The position numbers were made by a program, and so were the translations under genes. The notes beneath the pieces were generated by a model. That model was not told the origin of the DNA, made no database searches, and saw only the letters and a list, made by a program, of their open reading frames with translations. A stretch of DNA of 64,000 bases. Source: Candidatus Azambacteria bacterium (GTDB lineage Bacteria; Patescibacteriota; Minisyncoccia; GWC2-36-17; WO2-46-25). The DNA lies in NCBI GenBank assembly GCA_016234725.1, contig JACRAK010000025.1:5713-69712 (forward strand), in the 5' to 3' direction. This document shows, in pieces, positions 6,192 to 33,600 of this stretch (the first letter of the stretch is position 1; each line of letters starts with the position of its first letter).

Positions 6192-9100
6192 ATGAATTTA
6201 TATACAGCAGCCAGATTCTCTTCATTCGTTTCCCTTGCCGTTTTTATCGCGGTTGGTTTATGTGTATCACCGGTATTTTCCCATACCGTTTCTGCCGCTC
6301 CTTATTTTTACTTTGATGCTGAGAGCGGCACTGCGGGCGAGAGCCTTACTAACCCGCCTTTTTGTCAGACCGACTGCGGTGAAAGCTACCAAACAGGAAC
6401 GGTCGAATCTGCCGGAGGCGCTCCGCAAGGAACCAACTATTTTCAGTGGCACATCGCCAACCTTCAGCATTCTGTTTACAACATCGTTCATAACCCAAGC
6501 ACATTTCCTTTTAATCCGCCATTAGGGAGCACCATGTACTTGGCTTATTATTTTAATTATTCACGGGTCAATGGCGTAGATGTCTGGCATGAAGTTGACG
6601 ATAGCGCCGACAAGGGGATCGAACTTACCGGATCGGGCATACGATGGATAACGAGTCCCGGTCATTGGGGTTCGCTTGCAAACAATCAAGACCATCACTA
6701 TACCATCTGGATGGGTAATCCGACCTATCATCTCAATCCGCAATTTGAAGGCAATCCGTATTGGACGGTGGTTCCTCCCAATCAGAGCGGGTATAGCATC
6801 GCCGCCCCGCCCCAACTGGAATATGAACGATGGTATTCGGCCGTTATGGCAGTTAAGCTGGCTACAGATAATACCGGATCGGTTACCTTGTATCTTGATG
6901 GAGTAAAAATACTGGAATGGAACAACATCATCACTGCCGCAAACACCGCGCCAACCATAGAACACATAACAATGGGCGGGACCATTGCCCAGCCCGCCTA
7001 TGACACGCCGGAGCATTACAGAAAATACGACGCGTTAATGCTTACTGATAATTGGCAGGATATCGTTAACGGCGGATATCTTGGAACTTCATCAATCGCC
7101 GATACCCAAGCGCCGACCGTACCCAGCGGCCTTATTGCCATCGCCGCTTCTTCCGCGCAGATCGATCTTTCTTGGACGACTTCTACCGATACCATAGGAG
7201 TCACCGGATACACAATCTACCGAGACGGAACTCAAATTGCCACTTCCCCAACCAACTCATATGCAAACACCGGCCTTTCTGCTTCCACTCTCTACACATA
7301 TACCGTTTCCGCATATGATGCCGCCGGAAACAATTCCGCTCGATCCGCGATCGTATCAGCGACGACGCAGGCGGTACCGGTTGTCGCAACACCTTTCGGC
7401 ACTCCCGTCCTCAATTTCTCCGATCTCACTTCCGGCCCTAAGACCGGTTGGGAGGGATCGACTACTCAAGGATCGGCCGTCTCTATTTGGGGCAGCGGCT
7501 TTGGCTCATCAAGAGGTTCTAGTTATGTCACGGTCAATGGAGCCCAGCTTACTGCCGCCAGCGATTACGCAGAGTGGGGGGTGACAACGAACAACGCCAG
7601 GGGGCTAGAGAGAATTACATTTTGGTTAAATAATTTTTCCATCGACGGACCCGGCGGTATTACCGTTACCGTAAATGGCGAGACATCAAACACGCTCCCA
7701 TTTACCGTGCGGGCAGGAAATATCTATTTTATTGATGGCACAAACGGAAGCGATTCTTTTAATGGGGAAAAGGCGGTGAGCGGGGCAAGCGGAGGGCCAT
7801 GGAAACATTTCTATATGGCATCTCCCACGTACAATAGCGCTTTTCATGCCGGTGATATCGTTTATGTCAGGGGGGGTATTTATAATGAGATACACCCCAA
7901 CTCCGGGTCTGACCCTCTTATTATGTTTAATAACGTTCAGGGCACATCGGATAGTCCTTACATGATAGCCGCATTCCCTGGTGAATTTCCTCAGCTTGGC
8001 GATCAAGGGCATACCAAGGGAATATACAATCGCCAACAGGACGGCGGCGGTATACCATCACATGGCATAACTTTTTCAAAATTTCTATGGTCTCCCGGGT
8101 GCGAGGCGATCAACATTTGGGGAAATTATTGGCGCATTGTCGGCAACACGTTAAAAGATAATATCTGCGCAAGCCAGTCCGCCGCCCTTTCATCGACTAA
8201 TTCTGCCTATACCGAGGTATTGGGGAATGTTTTTGATCACAATGGAAACCCGGAATCCCAACTCCAGCATCATCTTTATTTCACTTCAGTATGTTTGGAT
8301 TACGGATATCAAAATTGTGCCGAATCCCATCATAATACGCTTGCATGGAATGAAACGATGAATGGACCAGGCTCGGCGGGGAACGGATCAGAATCCTGGG
8401 CCATTAAAACATGGATAGCAGGCACCGCGCTGACCTCCCACGATTTTTATATCCATGATAATTATTGGCACGATGAGCCGGGAGAAGCGATTTGGCTGTA
8501 TGCAAAAGTCAAAGATATTTACATTTACAACAATATCTTTGAGAAGGTAAATTTTTACAACAAGAAAGGAGGGATACGTTCTCAGGCTTTGGCCGGAAAT
8601 GCGCCCGCAGCAAACGGAAATTTATATTTATACAACAATACGTTTTACGACTGGAGCAACGGTGTTGATCAGGGGGCAATTGTCGCTTTTGGCGTGAATG
8701 ACCATTGGATCACAAAAAACAACATTTTTTATTCATCAAACCCGGCAGGATGGGTTTTGAGCGCGACGAATGGAGGCAGCGTTATATCCGATCACGACCT
8801 ATTCTATAATCACGGACAAATCAAATATAGCGGTGGAAATGTTACCACTACCAATGCGATTGTATCTGTAAACCCGCAATTTAGAAATAGTGCGACGCAC
8901 GATTTTTATTTAAACACCTCAAGTCCGGCAAAAGATGTCGGTGTCATGATAGATATTTTTAATAAAGACTATGACGGTATCTCCCGCCCTCAAGGCTCAG
9001 CATATGACATCGGCGCATACGAATATTATGAAGGCTCTGTTTCTGCCCCAGCTCCCATTGTCACTCCTCCGGCAAGCACACCAATAACCACACCTACCAC

Positions 9101-9638
9101 ACCGCCAACATCTTCCAGCGGCTCATCTTTTACCACCCCATCAGGGAATTCATCTTCGCAGACAACACCCTCTCCGGCTGCGAGCAACTCATCTCCTGCA
9201 ACTCCCTCAGGCATGAGCACATCCCCGGCAACTCACCCTTTAACCCAATCAACCGCATCACCATCTATCACAGAGGGTTCTCTCATTCGCGGCCCCGACG
9301 GCATTAAGGTGTATATTATCAACGCGCACGGGTACAAGCGCCATATCTTTAACCCCGCGATCTTCAATATGTACGGTCACTTCAAATGGAATGAAATTAA
9401 AAGCGTAGACCAACAAACACTCGATGCATTTAAAACATCCGATCTTTATCGGGCAGATGGGGATACTAAGGTCTTTTCCCTCTCTGAGATCAACGAAGCC
9501 CAAGGGCTTGCCCAAAAGCGCTGGTTTAACACCTCAGCCACAAAATTCCAACAACTCGGCTATACCTTTAATCAGGTCTTTATCATTAACCCGAGAGAGC
9601 GGGATTATTACCAGGAAGGCGCACCTATTACCAATTGA
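6192..9638 (+). CDS. Large secreted multidomain protein: signal/TM, ConA/LamG-like jelly-roll, fibronectin type III, right-handed beta-helix, Pro/Thr/Ser linker, C-terminal domain
   Basis: N-terminal hydrophobic signal. FN3 signature (APTVPSGL...LSWTTSTD...GYTIYRDG...YTYTVSAYDAAGN). Beta-helix repeats (NYWRIVGNTLKDN, NNIFYSS, ..YDIGAYEY). A PT-rich linker APAPIVTPPASTPITTPTTPPTSSSGSS. Confidence 0.7.
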   Translation: MNLYTAARFSSFVSLAVFIAVGLCVSPVFSHTVSAAPYFYFDAESGTAGESLTNPPFCQTDCGESYQTGTVESAGGAPQGTNYFQWHIANLQHSVYNIVHNPSTFPFNPPLGSTMYLAYYFNYSRVNGVDVWHEVDDSADKGIELTGSGIRWITSPGHWGSLANNQDHHYTIWMGNPTYHLNPQFEGNPYWTVVPPNQSGYSIAAPPQLEYERWYSAVMAVKLATDNTGSVTLYLDGVKILEWNNIITAANTAPTIEHITMGGTIAQPAYDTPEHYRKYDALMLTDNWQDIVNGGYLGTSSIADTQAPTVPSGLIAIAASSAQIDLSWTTSTDTIGVTGYTIYRDGTQIATSPTNSYANTGLSASTLYTYTVSAYDAAGNNSARSAIVSATTQAVPVVATPFGTPVLNFSDLTSGPKTGWEGSTTQGSAVSIWGSGFGSSRGSSYVTVNGAQLTAASDYAEWGVTTNNARGLERITFWLNNFSIDGPGGITVTVNGETSNTLPFTVRAGNIYFIDGTNGSDSFNGEKAVSGASGGPWKHFYMASPTYNSAFHAGDIVYVRGGIYNEIHPNSGSDPLIMFNNVQGTSDSPYMIAAFPGEFPQLGDQGHTKGIYNRQQDGGGIPSHGITFSKFLWSPGCEAINIWGNYWRIVGNTLKDNICASQSAALSSTNSAYTEVLGNVFDHNGNPESQLQHHLYFTSVCLDYGYQNCAESHHNTLAWNETMNGPGSAGNGSESWAIKTWIAGTALTSHDFYIHDNYWHDEPGEAIWLYAKVKDIYIYNNIFEKVNFYNKKGGIRSQALAGNAPAANGNLYLYNNTFYDWSNGVDQGAIVAFGVNDHWITKNNIFYSSNPAGWVLSATNGGSVISDHDLFYNHGQIKYSGGNVTTTNAIVSVNPQFRNSATHDFYLNTSSPAKDVGVMIDIFNKDYDGISRPQGSAYDIGAYEYYEGSVSAPAPIVTPPASTPITTPTTPPTSSSGSSFTTPSGNSSSQTTPSPAASNSSPATPSGMSTSPATHPLTQSTASPSITEGSLIRGPDGIKVYIINAHGYKRHIFNPAIFNMYGHFKWNEIKSVDQQTLDAFKTSDLYRADGDTKVFSLSEINEAQGLAQKRWFNTSATKFQQLGYTFNQVFIINPRERDYYQEGAPITN

Positions 9639-15423: not shown

Positions 15424-17397
15424 TCAATCTATTTTATACACGAATATCGAGTTGCCAATGACGGTGACGGGTGTTTTGCCGCGTAGCCAGAGATATGAAT
15501 CCTGTTCGGTGCGCGTGTATCTGCCCACCGGCGTGCCGAATGCTTCGGCAAGGAACGTGGCGGAGATCGCGTACCAGCCGCTTTCCGGCCCGCGGGAAGA
15601 CCACCACGGGATGAATTTATCGCCTAAATAATACTTTGGCGACCCGCCCCCGAAATAGTGCACGCGGATCTTGTCGATGTTGTTGGTTTCTACGAATTGC
15701 GCAAGCCGCTTGAGGTCCTGCCCCCAGTCAAGATTTGAATCAACGACATATTTGTACCCATTCGCAGGACCACCGGCAAGCTCGTTGAAATACGCGATGT
15801 AGAAAGGATAATGCGCGAGCACGGAAATCACATACCACATAACGATGGCAAAAAGAATGCCGTATTTCCACGCTTTGCGCGTGTAGAACGATATCAGCCG
15901 CTTCATCATGCTGGGTTCAAGCGTGAATGCGAAATCAGGTTTTTTGCGCAGGTGGCCGAGAATGATGCGCGACACCAGAAGGAACATGAACGGGAATGTC
16001 GGAATGACGTGCCTGATGCCGATGTTAAGGTTTGCCGCGATGCTTGAGGCCCAATAGAACGCGATGAATATCGCAAGGACTATTTCTATGAAATACGTGC
16101 GGGTGAATGCCGCAAGCCGTTCGCGCCAGGTGCGCCAGCCGGCAAACATCTTTTTGCGTATGTGTGTGCGAAGCGCGCCGAGCATAATAAGCAACGCCGC
16201 AAGGGAAAGCACGTGCATCGCAAGCGGTTCTTTAAGAAGGTATACGACAGGGAAATAATACCACCACGCGTCGCGCGCGACCTTGCCTAAGAAAAAGGTC
16301 GTGTTGCCTCCCACCGCGCGCTGACCGACCATGAGCACGCCAAGCGCATATTGCGCGAACGGGTGCACAATCGGCTTGTCCGACATCCAGATGAATGTTT
16401 CCGCGATCACGCGCGGGCGGAACGTTTTGAGGTTGCACACGGTGTCCCGATACTGGCTTACGGGTATTTTTATGGTATCGAGGTCTCTGCAAAGCGACAA
16501 TGCAGATGCCACGATCTCGTCCCGTTCCGCTTGGGTTGCGGGCGCGACGGGATAGTTCCATACGTGGATCTGATACAGCGGCCAGATGATGGCAACGTAG
16601 CCGATGATGAAAATAAGAAATGTGCGCGTCGCGAGCCGCCAGAGCGGCTTAAACATTTCTTTCCATGAGCGTCCGGCGTGGTGGGCGAATGCCCACAGAA
16701 TGATGAAACCGATGAATAACGGCACCAGAAGCACGAGCGAGAATTTCAGCGCCTGCGCAACGCCGAACGCAAGCCCGGCGGCGATAAGATTATGCCGGTT
16801 TTGCGCGTAGAGGTAACGGATGAAATAGGCGATCGCAAGAAAAAAGCCGAATGCCGCCGCGACATCGGTGGTGACGTATTTGCCGTGTGCGAGCAGGGCG
16901 GGGGAAAGCGCGAACAGCGCAAGCGCAAGCAAGGCAACGCGCGCGCCGAACCATTCTTTTCCGAACCGGAACAGCAAAAAGCCGAAAAGCACAGTGAGCA
17001 GCATCGGGCCGAGCCGCGCCCAAAAAAGGATACGGTCGGGGTCGTTGCCGCTCTCATATAAGAACAGTTCGCCCAGCTTCCATTGGCCGTTCAGGTCTGT
17101 TTGCCACGAGGCGGCGGTTTCAGGGAAATTGAGGTTTAAAAATGCAAGCGGAAGGCCGGCAAGGTCTTTGAGCAGCGGCGGATGCTCGGGGTTGATGCGC
17201 ATATCCTGATATGCGACATACGAATAGCCGGCGGGAATGTGCGCGATCTCGTCCATGATGGCCGCCTCCTGCGGCGCGGTCACGTACATCAGCAAAAACA
17301 TCCCGAACAACAAAAGCAGCGCGGCGGCGCGCGCTATCTTCCACGAAAATGCTTTATACAGGGCAGCTCCCTTTGCGACATGATCGATGAATTGCAT
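15424..17397 (-). CDS. GT-C family membrane glycosyltransferase (ArnT/PMT-like, GT39/GT83-like)
   Basis: Polytopic membrane protein with the N-terminal motif DEIAHIPAGYSYV...INPEHPPLLKDL typical of ArnT/PMT_2 glycosyltransferases. The start is placed at the internal Met (MQFIDHV) to avoid overlapping the ORF at 17453. Confidence 0.55.
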   Translation of the reverse strand: MQFIDHVAKGAALYKAFSWKIARAAALLLLFGMFLLMYVTAPQEAAIMDEIAHIPAGYSYVAYQDMRINPEHPPLLKDLAGLPLAFLNLNFPETAASWQTDLNGQWKLGELFLYESGNDPDRILFWARLGPMLLTVLFGFLLFRFGKEWFGARVALLALALFALSPALLAHGKYVTTDVAAAFGFFLAIAYFIRYLYAQNRHNLIAAGLAFGVAQALKFSLVLLVPLFIGFIILWAFAHHAGRSWKEMFKPLWRLATRTFLIFIIGYVAIIWPLYQIHVWNYPVAPATQAERDEIVASALSLCRDLDTIKIPVSQYRDTVCNLKTFRPRVIAETFIWMSDKPIVHPFAQYALGVLMVGQRAVGGNTTFFLGKVARDAWWYYFPVVYLLKEPLAMHVLSLAALLIMLGALRTHIRKKMFAGWRTWRERLAAFTRTYFIEIVLAIFIAFYWASSIAANLNIGIRHVIPTFPFMFLLVSRIILGHLRKKPDFAFTLEPSMMKRLISFYTRKAWKYGILFAIVMWYVISVLAHYPFYIAYFNELAGGPANGYKYVVDSNLDWGQDLKRLAQFVETNNIDKIRVHYFGGGSPKYYLGDKFIPWWSSRGPESGWYAISATFLAEAFGTPVGRYTRTEQDSYLWLRGKTPVTVIGNSIFVYKID

Positions 17398-17452
17398 ATA
17401 TGTATACGATAGGTCCAGTATATCATAGTGTACGAGCGTTGCAGAGGAGTCC

Positions 17453-17686
17453 ATGAGGCCGTATAATGAAGCAATGGGAAATAACCCGGTGCTCCAATCC
17501 CAATTCACCGCCCAGCCGCAAAAGGCGAGCGATGATGCGTCGCCGAAAATAAAAGCCGCATACGAGCGGTTTTTCGACGATGTCGCGAAAGCGAAGAAGG
17601 CGCATCGCGAGAAGATTAATGTTATTTTGCGCACGATCGATGAGCGGAAGATCAAAGATCTGAAAGAGAAATTAAAGGAGATGTGA
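17453..17686 (+). CDS. Hypothetical small helical protein (first gene of the operon)
   Basis: AGGAG ribosome-binding site upstream; 77 aa. Confidence 0.4.
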   Translation: MRPYNEAMGNNPVLQSQFTAQPQKASDDASPKIKAAYERFFDDVAKAKKAHREKINVILRTIDERKIKDLKEKLKEM

Positions 17687-17687
17687 T

Positions 17688-17933
17688 ATGGAAATAGACG
17701 CATTAAATCTGCTCGCAAACAAAACAAAAGAACTCATTAAGAACGAGAGCGCAAAATCGCTTATCGATATTGATAACTACACGGGGATGGCGACGGGGCG
17801 CTCATACGCGGCACATGACGACATTCAGCAGGCGATCGAAGCGTCGCGAAGCGCAAAGGACGCTATCAGCGAGCTTAAAAGCGCAGTGATCATTGAAATA
17901 GATAACATCGTAAAAGACGCAACCGCGCAATAA
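17688..17933 (+). CDS. Hypothetical small helical protein
   Basis: Translationally coupled to the upstream gene (TGA then ATG); AGGAG ribosome-binding site; 81 aa. Confidence 0.4.
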   Translation: MEIDALNLLANKTKELIKNESAKSLIDIDNYTGMATGRSYAAHDDIQQAIEASRSAKDAISELKSAVIIEIDNIVKDATAQ

Positions 17934-17936
17934 TAT

Positions 17937-20909
17937 ATGAAAGGATCATCAGAACAATCAGGATATTCAGGAGAAAAGGCATCCGAAGGTGCGGCAGAAG
18001 AAAAAGAATTCGATATCACACCGGCGGGAACGGCTGACGAAAAGAAAGATGAAAAGGAATGGGATATAAGCGTTGCAGAAGAAACTGAATCACCGGAGGA
18101 ATCGGCGTCAGAAGGAGCGGCACAGGAAGAAGACCCTCTTTCCGTCCAGCCCGAATGGTATGACAATGTTCGCAGGGGCTTGCCTTCTACGCCGACTCCG
18201 GAAGCAGAAAACGAACCGGAGCCGCAGGGAGAGCTCGAGCGCGGGGAAACGGAGAACAAGAACGAAGGCGCGGGGTATATGCGCATACCGGAGAATTATT
18301 TAAAAAGCGAATACGATGCGCCGGAACAGGTGCGCGAAGAAGCGGAAAATGCTGTTGCCGAAATGCCGGAAAAAGACCGCGAGTCGATTATAAGAGGATT
18401 TTTGGGGCTCGGATATGATGTGCAGAAGTTCAAAGGGAAAACTCTTTCGAAGGTGTTCACGGGGGTAGCAGAGAAGATCGGAGAAAGAAAGGCGGAAGGC
18501 AAGCTTGAAAAAAAACCGTTCGTGAAACGGCTGTTTGAAGCATATGGTAAAAACTACAGCGATCTTGCCGAGCGAGCGCAGAATGATCGCGAGAAATTTA
18601 ATAAAGAAGGCGGGGCGAAAGGTATAACAAAGAGCGCGATAAGCGCCACAGGTACATTATTAACGTGGGGAAGAGCTATCGGCGGGTTTGGCACCCCATT
18701 GGGGACGTTCGCTGCCGCAGCGATCGCTTTCGGGAAGGGAGGTGAGATGGTGAAAGAAGCGCATCTGAGATCGGAAGATGTCATTGAAGAAGGGCGTGTC
18801 CACGATATAGATGCGGCGGAAGACGAAGCACGGAAGTTGTATGCGGAAGCAAAAGAAAAATCAGAAGACGGAGCGGTGACGAAAGAACAGCTTATGCAGA
18901 CGTATAAAGAGCGATTGCCGCAGGACCTTATCGACCGCTTGGCGCGGGATGCGGGGACCGAAGGATTTATTGCAAAATGCGCGCAGATGATCGTGCGCAA
19001 AGATATCGAGCTTTCTGCGAAAAGGATACAGGGAAAACTGAGCGAGATCGAAAAAGATAGCGCCCTTTCAAAAGAGCAGAAAGAAAAAAGAGTAGCGGGC
19101 ACTATCAAGAAGTACGAGCGCTTTTTGAAAGACATGGACCGGATAGTGGGGAATGGCGGCGCGGTCGATGCGATCGCATATGGGAGTCGGCTTGTAGAAA
19201 AAGGAGGTAAGGCCGCCGCGACCCTCGTAGCGCTTGAAACGCTCGGGGAACTGGCATGGCGCGGAACAGCGGCGCTTGAGGCGCTTACGGAACAGAACAG
19301 CGAGGAGATGTCCATTCCCGAGACGGCTCCTTCCATTGAGAGTGCGCATACCCAGCCGCCCGCAGGAGAGATCCTTTTGGGTGAAGAGGCGGAGACCATG
19401 CTGCGTGAAAGCAAAGAACGGCTTATCGATTTCGCTCTCAAAGAAAAATTGGGCGCTTTCGATCTGACAATGGATGATCTTGCCGAGTCGGAGCTTGATA
19501 CGGTGGAGCTGGAATTGCTGGTCAACGGCGTGGAGGCGGGAGGATTTGGGGGAAATACGCGGGACATCATCATGTTCCTCGCGCATACTCCGGAAGCCGC
19601 GGAAAAGCTTGATGATGATGCCGTACGTTCTCTTTTGTCCAATGAAACGATGAGCGCTGAACGGGTCGAAGAGATATTGGGCGCAGATAAAACAGCGGTC
19701 ATAGGAAAAGGAGAAAGCATCAGTGAGGTGCTCGGCGCTTCGATGCCGCCTGATGCGAAAGTGACGGTGGTGAATCCTGACGGGACGGAGCTTGAAGATT
19801 TTGATGCGAATCTGGTGCATGAGGGAGATACGGTCGCGCAAAATGCCGATGGCACGATAACGGTGTTTAAGACATCAGATAGTGCGGTGAATCCCGAGCA
19901 TAGCTTGCAGGGTGTGTATGATTCGATCAAGCAGGGGCTTGATGAAAAAGGAGTTCCTTCCGAATTTCAGAATGCGCTGAATAAAGGCGAAGGGCATTGG
20001 GAAGGGCAAGTTTCGCGCGCGGAGGCAAGCGAAATAGAAGAAACATGGAATTCGCTGAAAGCTGATTTTGATGCATTGGATGAAGAAGGGAAAAAGATGT
20101 TTCTTGGCAAGCTTTCCAAGGGGATGACGGGAGAAGAGATTTCAGCGGTGCTTCGTGAACAGCTTGGCTCAGAGCAAGAACTTGCCACGGAAGAAGTTCC
20201 TCAGGACATACGGGAACAGTTTGTTTCGGCTGAGGGGCGCAAGGCGGCGGCGGAGGCGCTGGAAAAAGCATATGCGCCGGAGGAAATTGAGCGCGCAAAG
20301 ATCCCCGGCGAAACGGATTGGCCGCCGATAGACGGAAAAACACCCGAGGAGCGTATCGCTCCCGACGCGTGGAGCGAGGATATACGAAAAGGAGAGCGCT
20401 TTACGATACACGATGATGCGCTTGATGATGTTGATGCGCGCGAGCAAGTAAAAGCTCCTGCGCACGAGATATCGCCGCCGGAGCGTTTGCCGGAGGTGGC
20501 CGCGCATGCCGAAAGCGATGTTCCCGAGATCGTTTTAAAAACCGGGGAGAACGAATACATTTATAATGGTCCGGCGGGCGACTTTAAAGGAAAATTCTCG
20601 TATAATGAGAATAATGAGATCACAGGGTTTCGGCACGAAGGGGGTACAAAACTTGGGGGAGCCGATGAGCTAAGGAATTCCGTGCTCAAGGAAGGGTGGA
20701 GAGAAAAGATCCTCGGAAGGAAAGGGGGATCATATCTTATCGAGCAGAAGATAAAGATGACCGCTGATGATCTGGGGATCAGACAGCGCATACTTACTGC
20801 GATGGAAAGGGCGGGAGACAAAGACACGAAAGAATATCAATTCCTCAAGAAAACCATCGCCACGAGGATCGGATTACTTGAAAAAACATACGGAGACATT
20901 TTTAAATAA
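17937..20909 (+). CDS. Large (990 aa) highly acidic, coiled-coil-rich protein of unknown function
   Basis: Long ORF in an E/K/D-rich low-complexity context with one hydrophobic patch (GTLLTWGRAIGGFGTPLGTFAAAAIAFG) and no recognisable catalytic motifs. Confidence 0.55.
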   Translation: MKGSSEQSGYSGEKASEGAAEEKEFDITPAGTADEKKDEKEWDISVAEETESPEESASEGAAQEEDPLSVQPEWYDNVRRGLPSTPTPEAENEPEPQGELERGETENKNEGAGYMRIPENYLKSEYDAPEQVREEAENAVAEMPEKDRESIIRGFLGLGYDVQKFKGKTLSKVFTGVAEKIGERKAEGKLEKKPFVKRLFEAYGKNYSDLAERAQNDREKFNKEGGAKGITKSAISATGTLLTWGRAIGGFGTPLGTFAAAAIAFGKGGEMVKEAHLRSEDVIEEGRVHDIDAAEDEARKLYAEAKEKSEDGAVTKEQLMQTYKERLPQDLIDRLARDAGTEGFIAKCAQMIVRKDIELSAKRIQGKLSEIEKDSALSKEQKEKRVAGTIKKYERFLKDMDRIVGNGGAVDAIAYGSRLVEKGGKAAATLVALETLGELAWRGTAALEALTEQNSEEMSIPETAPSIESAHTQPPAGEILLGEEAETMLRESKERLIDFALKEKLGAFDLTMDDLAESELDTVELELLVNGVEAGGFGGNTRDIIMFLAHTPEAAEKLDDDAVRSLLSNETMSAERVEEILGADKTAVIGKGESISEVLGASMPPDAKVTVVNPDGTELEDFDANLVHEGDTVAQNADGTITVFKTSDSAVNPEHSLQGVYDSIKQGLDEKGVPSEFQNALNKGEGHWEGQVSRAEASEIEETWNSLKADFDALDEEGKKMFLGKLSKGMTGEEISAVLREQLGSEQELATEEVPQDIREQFVSAEGRKAAAEALEKAYAPEEIERAKIPGETDWPPIDGKTPEERIAPDAWSEDIRKGERFTIHDDALDDVDAREQVKAPAHEISPPERLPEVAAHAESDVPEIVLKTGENEYIYNGPAGDFKGKFSYNENNEITGFRHEGGTKLGGADELRNSVLKEGWREKILGRKGGSYLIEQKIKMTADDLGIRQRILTAMERAGDKDTKEYQFLKKTIATRIGLLEKTYGDIFK

Positions 20910-20914
20910 CACAT

Positions 20915-21130
20915 ATGCCGCAACAACCATTATCTGAAGACGCACAGAAAGCAATGCAGGAAAAACTCCAGCATCTGGTGGATCTCGCATTCGAGCAGGG
21001 GCTTCTCACGGCCATCGATCAGGCGCGGAAAGCGAACGACCCGTATCTGCTCGATGCGTTCCATGACGTGCTCACCGATAAGCTGTACCAGGAACTTATC
21101 GCGCAGCATAAATTAGAAGAACTGAAATGA
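20915..21130 (+). CDS. Hypothetical small protein (71 aa)
   Basis: ORF whose stop overlaps the downstream start (ATGA at 21127). Confidence 0.4.
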   Translation: MPQQPLSEDAQKAMQEKLQHLVDLAFEQGLLTAIDQARKANDPYLLDAFHDVLTDKLYQELIAQHKLEELK

Positions 21131-23607
21131 TCGTCGGCGCTTCGCTTTATTTTTTCATTATAGTGACGGTCATCGCCCTCGGGGCCGTTCTTTTTGTTGT
21201 GCCGTATCTGCTGCGGGTCCGCAGGAAACAGGAGATCGACTACTCGCTGAATCTCGCGCTGCTGCTCATTTCCTTGCCGCTCCATAAAGCGAAGCAGGCG
21301 AACGTGGAAGAGATCAGGAAGCTCATCGCAGTGATGGAGCAGTTTTACGCGGGCATCGTGCGCGTAGAGGAGGGGTGGCTCAAGGGGATGTTCTCCGGGT
21401 CATCGGCGCTGTCGTACGAGATCGTCCTGCCGGCGATCGGTGAGGAGATCCATTTTTACATCGGCGTACCGCGCAAATACGTTGAAACGGCGGAAAAGCA
21501 GATCACCGGTTTTTTGAACGAGGCAAAAGTGGAACGGGTGGACGACTACAATATTTTCAATCCGGTCGGCGTCAGCGCAGGATCCTCGCTCACGCTTTCG
21601 CACAGTTTCTATCTTCCCGTGAAGACGTACCAACAGCTTGAGATCGACCCGCTTAACTTCATCACCAACGCGATGTCGAAACTCGAGTTCCGGGGCGAAG
21701 GGTGCGCCCTGCAGGTGCTTGTGAAGCCCAATAGATCATGGCAGGAGGAAGCGCACAAAATAATATGGGAGATGAAAAGCGGTAAGACATTCAAGCAGGC
21801 GTACGCGCATGTGACAAAAGGCGCGGTGCAGGCGCTTGTTGAATCATTGCAGACAAAAGCGAAAGAAGAGATAAGCAAAGCACAGCAGGAAAAGGAAAAA
21901 GCGCAGGAGCGATTCCGCACCGTGGATGATGCGACCATCAAGGCGCTTGAGCAGAAAGCGTCCAAAGTCGGGTTTGACATCAATGTCCGCATGGTGGTGT
22001 CGACGCTGACGCAGACGCGCGCAGACGCGATCCTCTCGAGCATCGAAAGCTCATTCTCCCAATTTGAAAACCCGAACCTCAACGGGTTTATCGTCAAACG
22101 CGCCACGGGCAGGCAACTTGCAAAACTTATCTATGATTTTTCATTCCGCAATTTCAACACCGGCCAGCGGATGATCCTCAACACCGAAGAGCTTACGAGC
22201 GTTTTCCATTTCCCGACGCCGTATCTGGAAACCAAAAAGATCAAAGCACTCAAGAGCCGTGTGGCGCCATTGCCGACGAACATGCCTCTAGAGGGGCTGG
22301 TGATCGGCATGAACGTGTATCGCGGGGAGGAGCGGGAAGCGAAGCTGTCTACAGAAGACCGCCGCCGTCATATGTATATTGTAGGCCAGACTGGCACCGG
22401 TAAATCCGTGTCGCTCCAAAACATGATCCAGCAGGATATCGAAAACGGCGAAGGGGTGTGCTTCATAGACCCGCACGGCGAAACGGTGGAAGCGGTGCTC
22501 GCGAAAGTCCCGAAACATCGCGCCGACGATGTGGTGGTGTTCGACCCGGCAGATCTTGAACGTCCTATCGGCTTAAACATGCTTGAATACGATCCTGCAA
22601 GGCCGGAGCAAAAAACATTCATTGTGAATGAGCTCATCAGTATTTTTGACAAGCTGTACGATCTGAAAGCAACGGGAGGGCCGATGTTCGAACAATATAC
22701 GCGCAATGCACTCTTGCTCATCATGGCCGATCCGGAGAGCGGCTCCACGCTGCTCGAAGTGCCGCGCGTTTTTTCCGATCCGACATTCCGCAAAATGAAG
22801 CTCGCGAAAGTGCAGGATGTAGTGGTGAAGAATTTCTGGGAAAAAGAAGCGGAGAAAGCAGGGGGTGATGCGTCGCTTGCCAATATGACCCCGTATATCA
22901 CCAGCAAGTTCAATACGTTTATCGCAAACGAATTCGTGCGCCCGATCATCGCGCAGCAGCACAGCACCATCAAGTTCCGCGACATCATGGATAACAAAAA
23001 GATCCTACTCGTCACGCTTGCGAAAGGCAAGATCGGCGAGATCAACAGCAACTTGCTCGGCATGATCGTCATCGGCAAACTGCTCATGGCGGCGCTGTCG
23101 CGCGCCGATGTGGCGGAAACGGAGCGCAAAGATTTTTATCTCTACATCGACGAGTTCCAGAATTTTGCGACCGATTCTATTTCCGTGATATTATCAGAGG
23201 CGAGAAAGTACCGGCTTGCGCTCACCATGGCGCATCAGTTCATCGGCCAGCTGAAGGAAAATATCAAGCAGGCGGTGTTTGGCAATGTCGGCTCGATGAT
23301 GGTGTTTCGCGTGGGCACGGAAGACGCGGAATTCCTCCAAAAGCAGTTCGCGCCGGAATTTGAAGCAAACGACATCGCCAACCTGGATAATCTCAATGCG
23401 TATGTGAAAGCGCTGGTGAACGGGCAGGCGGTGAAGCCGTTCAATATCATCATGCCGCTCCCCAAGCAGGGGAATCCGGAAGTCGGGGCTATCCTCAAAG
23501 AACTCTCGCGGCTCAAATACGGGCGCGACCACAAGCAGGTGGAGCTTGAGATCCAAGAACGGTTCAGGACGCTTGCGCCTTCTCCGCTTCCTCCGCCTAC
23601 TAAATAA
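21127..23607 (+). CDS. VirD4/TraG/TraD-like type IV coupling protein ATPase with an N-terminal TM segment
   Basis: N-terminal TM (LYFFIIVTVIALGAVLFVVPYLL), Walker A YIVGQTGTGKSV, and Walker B FYLYIDEFQNF followed by ..ILSEARKYRLALTMAHQFIGQL.., the TraG-D_C/T4CP pattern. Confidence 0.65.
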   Translation: MIVGASLYFFIIVTVIALGAVLFVVPYLLRVRRKQEIDYSLNLALLLISLPLHKAKQANVEEIRKLIAVMEQFYAGIVRVEEGWLKGMFSGSSALSYEIVLPAIGEEIHFYIGVPRKYVETAEKQITGFLNEAKVERVDDYNIFNPVGVSAGSSLTLSHSFYLPVKTYQQLEIDPLNFITNAMSKLEFRGEGCALQVLVKPNRSWQEEAHKIIWEMKSGKTFKQAYAHVTKGAVQALVESLQTKAKEEISKAQQEKEKAQERFRTVDDATIKALEQKASKVGFDINVRMVVSTLTQTRADAILSSIESSFSQFENPNLNGFIVKRATGRQLAKLIYDFSFRNFNTGQRMILNTEELTSVFHFPTPYLETKKIKALKSRVAPLPTNMPLEGLVIGMNVYRGEEREAKLSTEDRRRHMYIVGQTGTGKSVSLQNMIQQDIENGEGVCFIDPHGETVEAVLAKVPKHRADDVVVFDPADLERPIGLNMLEYDPARPEQKTFIVNELISIFDKLYDLKATGGPMFEQYTRNALLLIMADPESGSTLLEVPRVFSDPTFRKMKLAKVQDVVVKNFWEKEAEKAGGDASLANMTPYITSKFNTFIANEFVRPIIAQQHSTIKFRDIMDNKKILLVTLAKGKIGEINSNLLGMIVIGKLLMAALSRADVAETERKDFYLYIDEFQNFATDSISVILSEARKYRLALTMAHQFIGQLKENIKQAVFGNVGSMMVFRVGTEDAEFLQKQFAPEFEANDIANLDNLNAYVKALVNGQAVKPFNIIMPLPKQGNPEVGAILKELSRLKYGRDHKQVELEIQERFRTLAPSPLPPPTK

Positions 23608-23640: not shown

Positions 23641-23898
23641 ATGTTTTATTACGCCTATGTCTTACAATCTTTAAAGGATAGTAAATTTTACACGGGGTAT
23701 ACTAAGAATTTAAAATCACGATTTGAGCAACATAATAAAGGACTTAGCGAATCAACCAAGGATAGAAGACCGCTTAAGTTAATTTACTACGAAGCATGTT
23801 TGAACCAACAAGATGCCACGCATAGAGAAAAATATCTGAAAACGTACCATGGGAAAATGTTTATAAAAAATAGGCTCAAATCGTATTTAACAGGGTAA
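23641..23898 (+). CDS. GIY-YIG nuclease family small protein (UPF0213/YhbQ-like) in an AT-rich cassette
   Basis: Motif YAYVLQSLKDSKFYTGYTKNLKSRFEQHN. Markedly lower GC than the flanks. Flanked by inverted repeats CACCCTGTTAA (23610-23620) and TTAACAGGGTA (23887-23898 and 23910-23920). Confidence 0.6.
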   Translation: MFYYAYVLQSLKDSKFYTGYTKNLKSRFEQHNKGLSESTKDRRPLKLIYYEACLNQQDATHREKYLKTYHGKMFIKNRLKSYLTG

Positions 23899-23923: not shown

Positions 23924-24586
23924 ATGGAACAACAAATCGCAGTGCCGGGAAAAAAAGCTATCGCATTCACCAGGACCGACGCCATCGCAAGCGTCGCGCT
24001 CGGGCTTATCATGGGCGTGCTCATCCCATTCATTTTAGGCAGGATAGGAAAAAGCGTCCCGATGCAGAACTATCTTATCATTGCGTTTCCTCTCGCGTCG
24101 CTTGTGGGGCTTTATATCGCGTCGCTCTTAAGCAAAGTGGTGCTGGTGCTGTATCAGGTAGGGAAGTTCGGCATCGTGGGGTTCACCAATTTCGTGGTTG
24201 ATACGGGCGTGTTTCATGTCATCATCGCGCTCTCGGGCTCGGCGCAGTCACAGCATCTTTTTTCCGTATTCTCTATCCCGCTCACGACGTGGACGTTCTT
24301 CAAAATACTGTCATTCATCGGCGCGAATGCGCATAGCTTTTTTTGGAATAAATTCTGGACATTCGGTCAGAAAGAGGTGAAAACCGCAAAGAAAGAATAT
24401 GTCGGGTTTTTCGTGATCAGCGTGGGCGGCCTGCTTATCAATAGCGGTGCGTTCTCCGTGGCATTCGCCTTACGGCCTGAAGGCGCTTCCGAGGCGCTGT
24501 GGGGCACGATAGGCGTCGCGGTGGGGTCCGTCATCGGCCTATTATGGAATTTTGTGGGGTATAAATTCTTTGTATTTAAGAAATAG
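23924..24586 (+). CDS. GtrA-like polytopic membrane protein
   Basis: GtrA family signature FGIVGFTNFVVDTGVF and multiple TM helices. Confidence 0.5.
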   Translation: MEQQIAVPGKKAIAFTRTDAIASVALGLIMGVLIPFILGRIGKSVPMQNYLIIAFPLASLVGLYIASLLSKVVLVLYQVGKFGIVGFTNFVVDTGVFHVIIALSGSAQSQHLFSVFSIPLTTWTFFKILSFIGANAHSFFWNKFWTFGQKEVKTAKKEYVGFFVISVGGLLINSGAFSVAFALRPEGASEALWGTIGVAVGSVIGLLWNFVGYKFFVFKK

Positions 24587-24615: not shown

Positions 24616-24966
24616 ATGGGAGAAAAAACAAAATCATTCAGAAACCTGATCGTATGGCAAAAGTCACGTGATCTGGCGGTTGGGATATATCACTTAACAG
24701 ATGGTTTTCCGAGGTCTGAGATGTACGGCTTAACGAATCAGATGAGAAGAGCTGCTGTTTCCATTTCTTCCAATATCGCCGAGGGCTATCATCGATTTCA
24801 TGTAAAGGAAAAACGACAATTTCATGCGATCGCCTATGGTTCCGGCTCCGAGCTTGAGAGCCAAATAGAGATTGCCAAAGCGCTGTTCCCCGACTTACAC
24901 TATAAGGATGTTGAGGGGTTATTGTCAGAAGTGTTGAGAATTTTAAATACGTTTCTTAATAAGTAA
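24616..24966 (+). CDS. Four-helix-bundle protein ('23S rRNA intervening-sequence protein' family)
   Basis: Signature NLIVWQKSRDLAVGIYHLTDGFPRSEMYGLTNQMRRAAVSISSNIAEG. Bounded by TTCTAG-type short tandem repeats on both sides. Confidence 0.7.
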   Translation: MGEKTKSFRNLIVWQKSRDLAVGIYHLTDGFPRSEMYGLTNQMRRAAVSISSNIAEGYHRFHVKEKRQFHAIAYGSGSELESQIEIAKALFPDLHYKDVEGLLSEVLRILNTFLNK

Positions 24967-26566: not shown

Positions 26567-26941
26567 ATGATATATACTAAAAACAACGAATATTCTGTAA
26601 GGTTTTACAAAGATGCCGACGGTAATATTCCTGTCTTAGAATATATTGATGATCTTTCTACTAAGGAAAGGGCGAAGGTTTTAAAATATATTGAATTTTT
26701 AAGGGAACATGAAGGAGTGCTGGATGAGCCATATGCAAAGCACATTACAGGAAAGATAAGAGAATTAAGGGTGGATTTTGCGAAAAGCAGGCACAGGATC
26801 TTTTATTTTACGTTCATCGGGAAAACGATTATCTTATTACACGCTTTTTTAAAGAAAACCGCGAAAACACCGGTGAGTGAAATAAGACGCGCCGAAGAAA
26901 ATTATAATGATGCGATACATAATAAAAACATCTATGCATAA
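26567..26941 (+). CDS. higB: Type II toxin, HigB/Gp49-like (RelE/ParE superfamily)
   Basis: Pattern ..ITGKIRELRVDFAKSRHRIFYFTF..KTIILLHAFLKKTAKTPVSEIRRAEENY typical of the Gp49/HigB killer protein. Immediately upstream of an XRE-HTH gene. Confidence 0.55.
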   Translation: MIYTKNNEYSVRFYKDADGNIPVLEYIDDLSTKERAKVLKYIEFLREHEGVLDEPYAKHITGKIRELRVDFAKSRHRIFYFTFIGKTIILLHAFLKKTAKTPVSEIRRAEENYNDAIHNKNIYA

Positions 26942-29777: not shown

Positions 29778-30383
29778 TTGGAAACAACTACAACTTTGAA
29801 TATGGAAAATGAAAATGTAAAAAATACCGTCTTTGTCTTTATAGACGCATCAAATTTATGGGAGGCCTTTAAGGCAAAAGGAAGGTTTATTGATTATGAG
29901 AGCACAATAAAACATATCAATCAAGAATTTGGCGCAAGCACTATCAAAACTTTTTATTACACTGCATATCCCGCAGACGGAACAAGAACATACAATTTAG
30001 ATGAGAAGCATAAATTTTTTACATATCTGAAAAAAGGATTAGGATTTGCTGTGATTAAGAAAGAGCTCAAAAGAATTAAGGTTGTGAATAAAGATGGAGA
30101 AAGAATAGAGGAAAAAGGGAATATGGATGTGGAAATAACAATTGATGTCCTTCACCACTTCAAAAAATATAACACCGCGGTGTTTTTTACTGGTGATTCT
30201 GATTTCCTTGCCCTTGTAACTTATTTAAGAAATCACGGGAAAAAGGTATTTATTTTTTCCTCAAAGAATAATATATCTCAAGAATTAAGGACTGGAGCAG
30301 ATGGATATACCGATATTTTGGGTATTGATGGTATATGGGGTAGAGAGCTAAAACACAGAGGGGAACTGGAAAAAGGGATATAA
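29778..30383 (+). CDS. NYN domain (LabA-like) putative ribonuclease
   Basis: VFVFIDASNLW...VITIDVLHH...FFTGDSDFLALVTYLRNHGKKVFIF pattern of PF01936. Confidence 0.55.
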   Translation: METTTTLNMENENVKNTVFVFIDASNLWEAFKAKGRFIDYESTIKHINQEFGASTIKTFYYTAYPADGTRTYNLDEKHKFFTYLKKGLGFAVIKKELKRIKVVNKDGERIEEKGNMDVEITIDVLHHFKKYNTAVFFTGDSDFLALVTYLRNHGKKVFIFSSKNNISQELRTGADGYTDILGIDGIWGRELKHRGELEKGI

Positions 30384-30604: not shown

Positions 30605-33600
30605 ATGAGCAATTTGTTTATAACTTACATCCAATCAATCTCAAGCAAGTTTTCTCATAAAGAGACAAGCGAGATGGGTTATCGCGCCGATTTTGAAATA
30701 CTCCTTAAAGGTGTTTTTGAGTCAATTAATGTCAAGCGCATTGATCACGATGCCCGGGCAAAGCAAGGAAACAAACCGGATTTTGTTGTTCTAAAAGGCG
30801 ATATTCCAATTCTTTATATTGAAGCAAAAGACATTGGCGTTTCTCTGGATAAAATAGAAAAATCAGAGCAGATGGTTCGTTATTTTGGATATTCAAACCT
30901 CGTACTTACTGATTATCTTGAGTTTCGTTTTTATAGGAACGGTCTATCTTACGGAGAGCCAATCAAAATCGGAGAATACAACCTTAAAGAAAGAACTTTA
31001 AAAGCCATCCCTGAAAATTATGAGCTAGTTGCAAAAACTCTGATTGATTTCGCGCAATCTCACAAAGAGCCGATAAAATCCGGCGCTCACCTTGCTAAAA
31101 TAATGGGCGGCAAAGCGCAAAGAATCAGAGATAATGTTAGCCAATTTCTTGCTATTGATTCAGACCAAAACAAGGAGCTCGCGCGAGTGTACGATGCGAT
31201 TAAGAAAATGCTCGTACACGACTTAACGCTTCCGACATTTGCAGATATGTACGCGCAGACGCTTGTTTATGGATTATTTGTTGCTCGTTATTATGACGAT
31301 TCTTCCGATACTTTTTCTCGCCAAGAAGCACGTGAGCTTGTTCCGGCTTCAAATCCGTTTTTGCAGCACTTTTTTGACCATATTGCGGGACCAAATTTTG
31401 ATAAGCGTTTGAGTTATATCGTTGACGAATTATGTGAGGTTTTTCAGCACGCCGATACAAAAAAACTCGTTGAAGAATATATGGATGATGCCGACCCCAT
31501 CATTCACTTCTACGAAGATTTCCTAAAAGAATATGACCCCGAGTTGCGCAAACGAATGGGGGCTTATTACACGCCGCTTCCGGTCGTGAATTTTATCGTC
31601 CGTTCGGTTGATCAGATTTTGCGAAAGGATTTCGGGCTTGCGCAAGGACTCGCAGATACTTCTAAATTAGCCGATGGAAAACACAAGGTGCAAATTCTTG
31701 ATCCGGCGGTCGGCACAGGAACATTCATTAGCGCCACGATCCGAATAATTTACGAACGCTTACTTGCGCAGAAACAGGAGGGGCGTTGGCCGGCATATGT
31801 TCACAACGAGCTTCTCCCGCGACTGCACGGCTTTGAGCTGATGATGGCTCCCTATACTATCGCTCACTTGAAATTAAGCTTGGCCTTCAAACAAACCGGC
31901 TTTTGGAAATTCCATCGTCGCTTGGGTATCTACCTCACCAACTCTCTTGAACAGTCAGCAAATCAGCAAAATCTTTTATCATTTGGATTTGCCGAAAGCA
32001 TCGCGGAGGAAGCAAAGCAAGCGGCGGTCATCAAGAATGATACACCGATCATGGTTGTGCTCGGCAATCCACCATACTCCGGAGAATCAAGCAATGCATT
32101 TTACTCAGGACACGATGTCTACAAGACAGAGCCAATGGGCGGTAAACTCAAGGAAAAAAATAGTAAGTGGCTGAATGATGACTATGTAAAGTTTATTCGT
32201 CTCGCCGAGACTTACATTGAAAAAAATGACGAAGGCATCGCGGCTATGATTACAGCTCACGGCTATCTAGATAACCCAACATTTAGAGGCATGCGTTGGC
32301 ATTTAATGCAAACTTTTGATGATATTTATTTACTCGACTTGCATGGAAACGCGAACAAAAAGGAGAAAGCGCCTGACGGCGGTGAAGATAAGAATGTATT
32401 TGATATCAAAACTGGGGTGGCGATTCTGATTGGTGTTAAGCGCCGAAAAGTGTCGAATGAAAAACTTGCTAAAATTTTTCGTGCCGAGTGTTTCGGCTCG
32501 CGAAAAGCAAAATTCAACTTTTTGGACTCTAGCTCTTTCGGTAGTGTTTCTTGGCAGGAAATTATACCAACGGCGCCGAAATACGCATGGATAGAACAAG
32601 ATGAAAAAGTTCGAGCGGAATATGAGAGGGGATTTTCGTTGAACGAACTCTTTCAGTTGAAAAATACGGGCGTTGTAACGAAGCGAGATAAACTTTGCAT
32701 CCAAGAATCACCCGAAGCTGTATGGCAGTCGGTTCAAGATTTTCTCGATCTTCCAGAGTCAGAAGTTAGAAGCAAATACAAAATACCCGCTGATGTTCGC
32801 GATTGGAAATACGACTGGGCGAAGCAGGATTTACTGAAAAGTGGCCCTTCTGAAAAAAACATCGTGCCGATTAGTTACCGTCCGTTTGATACTCGGTTTA
32901 TATACTATACAGGACGTGCGCGTGGTTTTGTGGGGTGGCCGGTCGAGAGGATAGGCCGACATTACGTGACTAGAGAGAACGTCGGGTTTCTCATTACCAA
33001 AGCACTCCGAGACGCGGATTACCATCACGTTTTCGCAACCCGCACAATCTCTGAGGTCATCTTTTTGTCCGGCATCACGGCGTCCAATGCAATAAATATG
33101 CCGCTTTACCTGTATATGGATGACGGCTCTCGTGCGCCGAATCTCAAGAAAGAAATTGTTGCTGAAATAGAAAAAACTGTTGGCAAAGTCACGCCTGAGG
33201 ATATTTTTGATTATATTTACGCAGTTTTGCACTCGCCGATATACAGAGAAAAATATAAAGAATTTCTCAAAATAGATTTTCCGCGCGTGCCGTATCCGAA
33301 AGATAAAAAACAATTTGACGCGCTAGTCGCGCTAGGGCGCGAGCTCCGGGAAATTCATTTGCTTGAATCTCCAAAAGTTGGCCAATTCATCACAACCTAT
33401 CCAGTTTCCGGTTCCGATACTGTTGAAAAAATCTCATATGAAGATGGCAAGGTATTTATCAACTTAGAGCAATATTTTGGTGATGTTCCGGAGATAGCAT
33501 GGAATTTCTTTATCGGCGGCTACCAGCCTGCCCAAAAATGGCTCAAAGACCGCAAAGGCCGCACGCTTTCAAATTCCGATATTGAGCACTATCAGAAAAT

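Follow-up and report, generated by a model that had tools for sequence, protein, structure and literature searches.

Patescibacteria account for a large share of bacterial diversity, and the members studied so far live in dependence on bacterial hosts. The present analysis concerns a five-gene operon from Candidatus Azambacteria (Patescibacteria, or candidate phyla radiation; Parcubacteria), with particular emphasis on its membrane-anchored ATPase and on the small protein encoded just upstream of it. The sequence under study, referred to as the window, is a stretch of 64,000 nucleotides of the chromosome on contig JACRAK010000025.1, in which the operon occupies positions 17453-23607 of the + strand. 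The operon comprises five open reading frames (ORFs): small protein 1 (17453..17686, 77 residues as called), small protein 2 (17688..17933, 81 residues, acidic), an acidic protein of 990 residues with the working name BIG (17937..20909), a helical acidic protein of 71 residues with the motif NDPYLLDAFHD, designated sp3 (20915..21130), and the ATPase of 826 residues (21127..23607), in which a transmembrane helix and a DUF8128 domain precede a nucleotide-binding domain of the kind found in type IV coupling proteins (T4CPs). The successive intergenic gaps measure 1, 3 and 5 nucleotides and are followed by a 4-nucleotide overlap (ATGA) between the stop codon of sp3 and the start codon of the ATPase. 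The five co-directional, tightly packed or overlapping genes described in an earlier note on this DNA were all recovered at these positions of the + strand.

The G+C content of the operon (0.50-0.53) falls within the range of the window (0.39-0.55). A Pfam scan of 40 ORFs of 85-1148 residues located outside the operon, which represent most of the non-nested ORFs of at least 120 residues, revealed no VirB4, VirB6, VirB-like protein or relaxase in the window, in agreement with the earlier note, and no integrase. Relaxase and/or mating-pair-formation genes, the usual company of a T4CP, are thus not found beside the ATPase in the window. The same scan identified a series of housekeeping genes, namely a Mur ligase, rpsB, tsf, efp, LysRS, SerRS, an FtsQ-like gene, dnaX, RNase R, an AddA-like helicase-nuclease, Obg and SUF.

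Of the five products, the 826-residue protein is the sole one assigned to a known family. Judged by its profile matches, it is a motor of the T4CP type (VirD4/TraG/TrwB), distinct from FtsK and from HerA. The Walker A motif GQTGTGKS occurs at residues 420-427 and the Walker B motif FYLYIDEF at residues 670-677. Among 81 homologs, G420-K426, F670, Y673, D675, E676 and F677 are invariant, Y671 and L672 are conserved in at least 90%, and the final Ser of Walker A is not invariant. The Pfam family T4SS-DNA_transf (PF02534) matches residues 397-728 (332 residues) with 41.6 bits for a cut-off of 20.1, TrwB_AAD_bind reaches 31.4 bits, and TraG-D_C, with 21.7 bits, remains just below its cut-off of 22. 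The N-terminal transmembrane segment, Walker motifs and TraG-D_C-type pattern noticed earlier are all borne out, the last by a narrow sub-threshold match. The NCBIfam models ranked at the top are those of TraD/VirD4, all far below their equivalog cut-offs. A profile built from the 81 sequences and searched against the sequences of the PDB retrieved TrwB (E 6e-7) and DotL (E 1.7e-4) ahead of HerA, and no FtsK or VirB4 chain. Profile alignment with hhalign to R388 TrwB (95.9%, E 6e-9) extends over 265 columns from Walker A to beyond Walker B, and that to R388 TrwK, a VirB4 protein, covers the P-loop only (9.4%). The AlphaFold2 model of the full-length ATPase (mean predicted local distance difference test score, pLDDT, 82.4) shows a helical insert at about residues 494-622 between the two Walker motifs, a region spanned by the TrwB alignment, and superimposes on TrwB with a template-modelling score (TM-score) of 0.60-0.65 at 5.0-7.0 Å (Foldseek). 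The T4CP-type nucleotide-binding domain as a whole extends over about residues 395-815.

In the HMMER comparison with T4CP, FtsK and HerA profiles that the earlier note had proposed, the T4CP model T4SS-DNA_transf exceeds its threshold and FtsK and HerA models match in part or below threshold. FtsK/SpoIIIE was rejected on the basis of a score of 21.7 for a cut-off of 24 (PF01580), confined to residues 386-435, and of the single transmembrane helix. For HerA, the DUF87 match (39.8 bits) is limited to residues 399-486, HerA_C scores 17.9 for a cut-off of 22, the NCBIfam models score about 17 for cut-offs of 850-970, and the profile search of the PDB places HerA after both TrwB and DotL. A VirB4 motor was rejected in the same way (AAA_10, 15.2 for 27.5; TraC, 18 for 567; VirB4_plasma, 17 for 590).

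The N-terminal part of the ATPase begins with a hydrophobic helix (residues 1-33, Kyte-Doolittle value 2.92) followed by RVRRK, from which a single N-terminal membrane helix is predicted, with the remainder of the protein in the cytoplasm. It is followed at residues ~40-360 by DUF8128 (PF26449, from a newer Pfam release), a domain of about 320 residues of which no mention was found in the literature searched. When residues 1-395 were modelled on their own (pLDDT 81.5; predicted template-modelling score 0.81), the Foldseek comparison with the PDB gave matches to 13 TrwK/VirB4 chains (E 2.6e-5 to 1.3e-3, TM-score 0.40-0.42) over about 410-430 columns; these were the sole significant matches, the next one having an E value of 0.016. 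With the full-length model too, TrwK ranked first, over about 900 columns. According to these models, DUF8128 probably adopts the fold of the VirB4 N-terminal domain, and the ATPase would therefore be a T4CP with the shape of a VirB4.

Homologs that include the DUF8128 region were detected by tblastn in plasmids of Bacillus, Streptomyces, haloarchaea and Sulfolobus and in Bacillus phages, with 79-89% of the query aligned at 21-28% identity. A homolog from a 27.5-kb plasmid of B. subtilis, which matches both domains of the ATPase in a hidden Markov model (HMM) search, is the first gene product of a conjugation operon; downstream come the genes of a replication-relaxation protein, of conjugal transfer proteins and of an ATP-binding protein of 847 residues. 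From these homologs, the DUF8128-ATPase family appears to represent a coupling-protein class of the conjugative elements of single-membrane organisms, of which the ATPase of Patescibacteria is, from the sequence comparisons, a domesticated copy.

Homologs with both domains are also encoded by phages, in 41 records from Bacillus, one from Brevibacillus, one from Microcystis and two labelled "Deep-sea", at 21-24% identity over 79-89% of the query. Examples are gp156 of Bacillus phage G (JN638751.1, 90952-93006) and gp52 of Bacillus phage 031MP002 (L124, 5902-8058), the latter located in the early/recombination-replication region of the phage. PHROG 5156, a family of unknown function, matches the whole ATPase (E 2.9e-89).

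The second component is sp3, whose mean column identity of 84% within Azambacteria makes it the best conserved of the small proteins of the operon. Its domain (NDPYLLDxFHD) was traced by iterated HMM searches over 87 ATPase loci, and immediately precedes the ATPase in 36 of them and is fused in-frame to its N-terminus in another 30; it went undetected in 16, and 5 had no upstream sequence. When free, the domain usually forms the C-terminal part of a protein of 112-157 residues (extremes, 58 and 186) with an acidic low-complexity N-terminus. A transmembrane helix occurs in 54 of the 57 unfused ATPases versus none of the 30 fused ones, and the fusions place the sp3 domain immediately before the first strand of DUF8128, an arrangement which suggests that the two associate physically near the membrane, at that end of the ATPase. 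On this evidence sp3, and not the 990-residue protein, is the conserved partner of the ATPase. It would be made in step with the ATPase because the stop codon of one overlaps the start codon of the other, its most likely binding site is the N-terminal, membrane-proximal end, as the sequences of the fused forms suggest, and it could serve as an adaptor or a regulator.

At 10 of the 16 loci devoid of a detectable sp3 domain, a different family of 150-194 residues, whose N-terminus is rich in Pro and Glu and whose C-terminus (WLKIIPGVNKFFLEQEAKIKTDKIL) is conserved, is encoded immediately upstream of the ATPase (L029, L032, L037, L046, L049, L053, L058, L060, L064 and L069, with Uhr-, Falkow- and Komeilibacteria among them). 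This family may be an analogous partner of the ATPase.

The ATPase, which is 100% identical to a protein of Candidatus Azambacteria, is widely distributed. Its homologs number more than 7,400, the top 120 all having at least 52% identity, and at least 599 relatives were confirmed among species-representative genomes (one genome per species). The best 80 of these show 44-62% identity, with 60% for an Azambacteria locus, 59% for a partial match and 44-55% for the others, and come from Sung-, Moran-, Nomura-, Uhr-, Lipton-, Taylor-, Komeili-, Falkow-, Niyogi-, Zambryski- and Staskawiczbacteria. The chromosomal context is equally stable. Azambacteria share the gene order PMT_2 (opposite strand), three small proteins, ATPase, GtrA and dnaX, and a Portnoybacteria-like contig displays SerRS, an FtsQ-like gene and PMT upstream, with GtrA and dnaX downstream. 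Over 85 ATPase loci, the recurrent neighbours are PMT_2 (25, i.e., 13 + 12), ndk at the +1 position (20), the methionine aminopeptidase gene map (17), a beta-CASP RNase resembling RNase J (17), dnaX (16), secY (12) and GtrA (10). No VirB6-like protein and no relaxase or mating-pair gene occurs within 8 kb of the ATPase in the 87 loci searched. From this comparison of sequences, the ATPase is a chromosomal, vertically inherited core gene and not the remnant of a mobile element.

The 990-residue protein is of another nature. Its isoelectric point is 4.66, Asp and Glu make up 20.9% of its residues, and a weak hydrophobic, Gly/Ala-rich patch lies near residue 247. No match was found in Pfam, PDB, PHROG or PADLOC. 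A low-complexity acidic N-terminus (residues ~1-120) is followed by a conserved core of about 300 residues (~120-445) containing two Gly/Ala-rich hydrophobic segments, and then by lineage-specific middle and C-terminal domains; the last ~90 residues are net positive and the rest is acidic. The acidic character and the hydrophobic patch previously attributed to this protein are thus confirmed, but not the low complexity throughout, residues ~120-445 being a conserved domain. A word-index search yielded five close relatives, and the idea that the protein has only these was overturned by an exhaustive profile search, which returned 388 representative clusters; for 205 of these the E value was no higher than 1e-30. 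Members of the family range from 325 to 2,155 residues around the common core, and one sub-threshold coiled-coil match is their only trace in Pfam. A relaxase-like nature was also considered and rejected, the family profile matching nothing in Pfam, NCBIfam, the PDB or the Bacillus plasmid operon. The + strand shows a purine excess at 17000-21000 (AT skew up to 0.28, GC skew up to 0.25), because the 990-residue gene codes for a protein rich in Glu, Lys, Gly and Asp, and this excess creates long spurious antisense ORFs such as 18554-19930 (-).

Within Azambacteria, the gene is missing from the exact position in loci whose ATPases are 90% (L088), 87% (L005), 74% (L006) and 71% (L001) identical to that of the window, and present in L087 (ATPase 78% identical). 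The junctions are clean, a relative reading TAA-TTATAAACAT-ATG versus TAA-TAT-[ORF]-TAA-CACAT-ATG in the window. Where present, the protein diverges faster than the ATPase (51-64% versus 78-90% identity). It would accordingly be misleading to treat it as the paired partner of the ATPase, as had been proposed, given its absence from such close relatives; by sequence comparison, the gene is a strain-variable accessory insertion between small protein 2 and sp3. The family nevertheless recurs beside sp3 and the ATPase in Azambacteria and Portnoybacteria. Three of 28 metagenome loci picked by the core alone (a scan made with a 5-sequence alignment, about 13 of the 28 loci having enough flanking sequence) also adjoin sp3/ATPase, for a chance expectation roughly estimated at ~1% per locus. 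The co-occurrence, whose examination the earlier note had proposed, is thus a recurrence in other lineages and not a general rule, the association being seen at only 2 of 85 ATPase loci.

A second context was found at no fewer than five other loci, where the family lies about six genes from a VirB6/TrbL-like protein with 8-10 transmembrane segments. The order is an M23/LysM peptidase (-), the 990-residue family, UvrD, KsgA, an unknown protein of 295 residues, a Cys/Thr-rich protein of 535-750 residues with a single transmembrane segment and, finally, the VirB6/TrbL-like protein of about 780 residues (metagenome contigs L101, L105, L106, L113, L116 and L092). One member of the cluster of the latter protein carries a precomputed TrbL/VirB6 match, and KsgA has been reported as typical of virB4 neighbourhoods. 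The block from M23/LysM to the VirB6-like gene resembles the margin of a type IV secretion system (T4SS) region of Patescibacteria. The substrate-delivery module suggested in the earlier note may hold, the family recurring in both of these contexts.

The two first genes of the operon are more restricted. Small protein 1 is basic (isoelectric point 9.6), with a conserved C-terminus (IDERKIKDLKEKLK), and gives no match in Pfam, NCBIfam or PHROG. It probably starts at M8 (17474), 21 nucleotides downstream of the listed ATG, which leaves 70 residues, because its relatives start there in an alignment with three of them. Small protein 2 has no match in Pfam, NCBIfam, PHROG or PADLOC. Both match by HMM in Azambacteria loci only, and homology to the 71-residue domain, or to the proteins that other lineages encode upstream, was rejected (hhalign, 2.5% at most). 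They are, as far as these searches extend, Azambacteria-specific additions.

Any functional reading has to take into account what has been published on secretion in this phylum. According to the passages and tables of Quinonero-Coronel et al. 2025 (PMC12102498) used here, 2,918 of the 3,035 genomes of Patescibacteria contain VirD4-type homologs, 5,713 in all, only 148 of which lie near virB4, the table rows corresponding to the DUF8128-ATPase family being unconfirmed; VirB4 is present in 2,417 genomes and relaxases are almost absent. In Southlakia the T4CP homolog is non-essential and the T4SS genes are essential, and because of the former the authors keep open an exaptation of the T4CP. In their Table S1, VirB4 is recorded in 13 of the 15 Azambacteria genomes examined; the rows for GCA_000999325.1 list VirB4, TrsD, VirB3 and VirB2 elsewhere on the chromosome, and in one Azambacteria example the T4CP is gene 203 and VirB4/TrsD/VirB3 are genes 392-394. 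The designation of the ATPase as an orphan thus holds within the window, but other Azambacteria carry VirB4 elsewhere according to these tables. Wang et al. 2023 described the essential T4SS cluster of Southlakia as lacking a recognisable coupling protein or relaxase.

The T4CP homologs of PMC12102498 resemble the present ATPase in belonging to the same phylum, in being near-universal and rarely located by virB4, in lacking a relaxase and in a possible change of function. They differ in that DUF8128, sp3 and its fusions, the fixed housekeeping synteny and the 990-residue family are not described in the passages of that publication used here. NCBI, for its part, annotates the 826-residue ATPase as a T4CP of the VirD4-like kind. 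The ATPase is therefore of a gene kind already noticed and annotated, and sp3 with its fusions, the VirB4-like N-terminal domain and the 990-residue family appear to be undescribed. These findings are incremental, and the functions proposed for them are putative.

The favoured explanation considers sp3 and the ATPase as the two-protein core of the operon. The ATPase would form a hexameric-type, TrwB-like ring at the membrane, and the unit would go back to coupling proteins that served conjugative elements in single-membrane bacteria, and would since have become a core gene. Sp3 would bind the N-terminal end of the ATPase and, in many other Parcubacteria, would have been fused there in replacement of the membrane helix. 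The pair would recruit substrates for, or energise, a non-conjugative chromosomal T4SS encoded elsewhere, of which the 990-residue protein would be a client or scaffold. That the sp3-ATPase unit is the cytoplasmic recruiting or energising ATPase of such a T4SS is a proposition which we regard as about evenly poised between true and false. The 990-residue protein could, in turn, be a client (substrate or adaptor) or a scaffold of the ATPase/T4SS machinery, its net-positive C-terminus offering a weak hint in this direction. The more specific proposal that the family consists of T4SS clients, i.e., secreted effectors or surface factors recruited via sp3 and the domesticated ATPase, is doubtful.

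Several observations weigh against this explanation. T4SS channel genes occur within 8 kb of the ATPase in 0 of 87 loci, and the 30 relatives fused to sp3 are devoid of any membrane anchor. The T4CP homologs outnumber VirB4 in the genome counts of PMC12102498 (2,918 versus 2,417) and the Southlakia homolog is dispensable while the T4SS genes are essential, so that a role independent of the T4SS is possible. The link of the 990-residue family to the ATPase is lineage-restricted (the 2 of 85 loci mentioned above), and that to the VirB6-like gene runs through the housekeeping genes UvrD and KsgA and could be plain synteny. Finally, the VirB4-like fold of the N-terminal domain is a predicted structure compared with what is effectively one solved protein, and the hhalign match to TrwK reaches the P-loop only.

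The main rival to the T4SS model is a housekeeping role, in which the T4CP-type ATPase and sp3 were re-used for membrane translocation, either of DNA at division or uptake or of another envelope polymer; we view it as possible, though rather unlikely. It accounts for the strict synteny by dnaX, ndk, map and secY, with the envelope genes PMT_2 and GtrA on the flanks, and for ATPase identities of 44-55% across classes, comparable to those of core genes. It also agrees with the published survey, in which T4CP homologs are commoner than VirB4, almost never near virB4 and non-essential, and whose authors themselves raise exaptation (PMC12102498), and with the location of the Bacillus phage homologs in early/replication regions, far from secretion genes. 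Nothing, however, points directly to another substrate, the nearest annotated relative in which both domains occur belongs to a conjugation operon, the associated 990-residue family also occurs near VirB6-like genes, and incomplete genomes can account for some of the VirB4-negative cases.

Much less credible is an anti-phage defence system (MADS mad8-like or HerA-type) to which the ATPase would belong as a member of the HerA/FtsK superfamily, with the other four proteins as effectors or sensors. The PADLOC model mad8 does match residues 401-770 with 61 bits (E 3e-17), weaker HerA matches fall on the P-loop, DUF87 scores as given above, the gene content inside the operon is variable, and genes for a type ISP restriction enzyme and for toxin-like proteins are found less than 10 kb away. 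However, the near-universal, syntenic and vertical distribution is unlike that of defence islands, the HerA matches span only ~50 residues around Walker A, and the T4CP-specific alignment is much longer. A MADS/HerA system was rejected, only the motor domain matching and no mad gene occurring among the other four proteins, for which the sole PADLOC match is HamA on small protein 1 (14.2 bits, E 0.005). The last rival, a decayed remnant of an integrated conjugative element as the earlier note had suggested, can be dismissed as very improbable: a T4CP-type ATPase without other transfer genes in 64 kb, a 990-residue gene that varies among close relatives and small selfish-looking genes (GIY-YIG, 23S rRNA intervening-sequence protein) inserted just downstream would fit it, but it is rejected because housekeeping synteny is conserved across distant Parcubacteria, with the same chromosomal position across orders in a gene carried by hundreds of species (at least the 599 species genomes counted above), intact catalytic motifs invariant in 81 homologs, no integrase, relaxase or repeat boundaries, and a G+C content like that of the flanks and within the window range.

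The interest of the locus stems from the essential T4SS of Southlakia epibionticum, a cultivated member of the phylum, and from the question of what this system moves and by which route its substrates arrive. A widespread "orphan" coupling-protein homolog turns out to be a fixed core gene that has its own dedicated small partner, entire lineages carrying the two as a fusion, and the locus offers testable candidates for an adaptor (sp3), a motor (the ATPase) and a possible cargo (the 990-residue family). If the sp3-ATPase pair does serve a T4SS and the 990-residue family is its client, the latter would be the first candidate cargo for a T4SS that is essential in cultivated Patescibacteria, and its rapid divergence and its variable presence from strain to strain would result from adaptation to differing bacterial hosts. 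For annotators, a DUF8128-ATPase gene should not count as evidence of a conjugative element.

Upstream of the operon and divergent from it, a PMT_2-type glycosyltransferase gene (Pfam; 15424..17390, -) is the conserved neighbour, found in the same position in L001, L003, L006, L087, L088 and L089. As listed, its ORF runs from an upstream TTG to 17727, ~340 nucleotides too far, and overlaps small protein 1; the real start would lie near 17390, because its relatives have about 650 residues. The gene of a GtrA-family membrane protein (Pfam; 23924..24586, +) is the next one after the ATPase in Azambacteria relatives. Both PMT_2 and GtrA are synteny markers. In the window, an 85-residue GIY-YIG nuclease-domain gene (23641-23898) lies between the ATPase and GtrA and a 23S-rRNA-intervening-sequence (bAvd-like) gene (24616-24966) between GtrA and dnaX; they look like recent small insertions because they are absent there in L005 and L088.

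Downstream of dnaX, a cluster of conflict-type genes comprises a Gp49/HigB-like toxin (26567-26941), an NYN nuclease (29778-30383), a type ISP restriction-modification enzyme of 1016 residues (30605-33655) and a Fic protein with a helix-turn-helix (34530-35594), the restriction enzyme, Fic and Gp49-like toxin being Pfam identifications; the G+C content drops to ~0.39-0.42 across 29-35 kb, versus ~0.50 around. A protein of 1148 residues at 6192-9638, with fibronectin type III and weak polysaccharide-lyase-like matches, is possibly a surface or host-interaction protein. Promoter and terminator scans of the locus gave counts equal to the shuffled expectation, and Rfam detected only tRNAs in the window, including a fifth one at 54669-54740 (-), with 41 bits and without an ARAGORN call.

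Among named systems, the closest counterpart is the DUF87/T4CP-like protein WP_345805471.1 of the B. subtilis plasmid (NZ_CP154917.1), which shares a DUF8128-like N-terminal domain and a T4CP motor (E 6e-61, profile positions 88-216 and 261-780, 23% identity). It differs in that transfer genes and a VirB4-sized ATPase follow the plasmid gene, none of which occurs near the ATPase of the window, and in lacking both an N-terminal transmembrane helix and an sp3-like partner. TrwB of R388, and with it VirD4, DotL and Cag-beta, resembles the ATPase in its motor, from Walker A through the helical insert to Walker B, and in its N-terminal membrane anchoring. In contrast, TrwB has no domain of ~320 residues between membrane segment and motor, shares only 15-16% identity, and is encoded beside its own relaxase on a conjugative plasmid. 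TrwK, the VirB4 protein of R388, is similar in its succession of an N-terminal domain and a C-terminal ATPase, in its size of ~820 residues and in the predicted fold of the N-terminal domain, but profile similarity does not extend past the P-loop, the motor in the window being of the T4CP type. With respect to the small partner, both Cag-beta/CagZ and TraJ/TraI of pIP501 associate a coupling ATPase with a small dedicated protein encoded alongside. The Cag-beta/CagZ structure of Helicobacter (8dol) is found among the fold matches of the ATPase model, and the difference from it lies in the site of the partner, which the fusions would place, for sp3, at the N-terminal end of the ATPase and not at the all-alpha domain.

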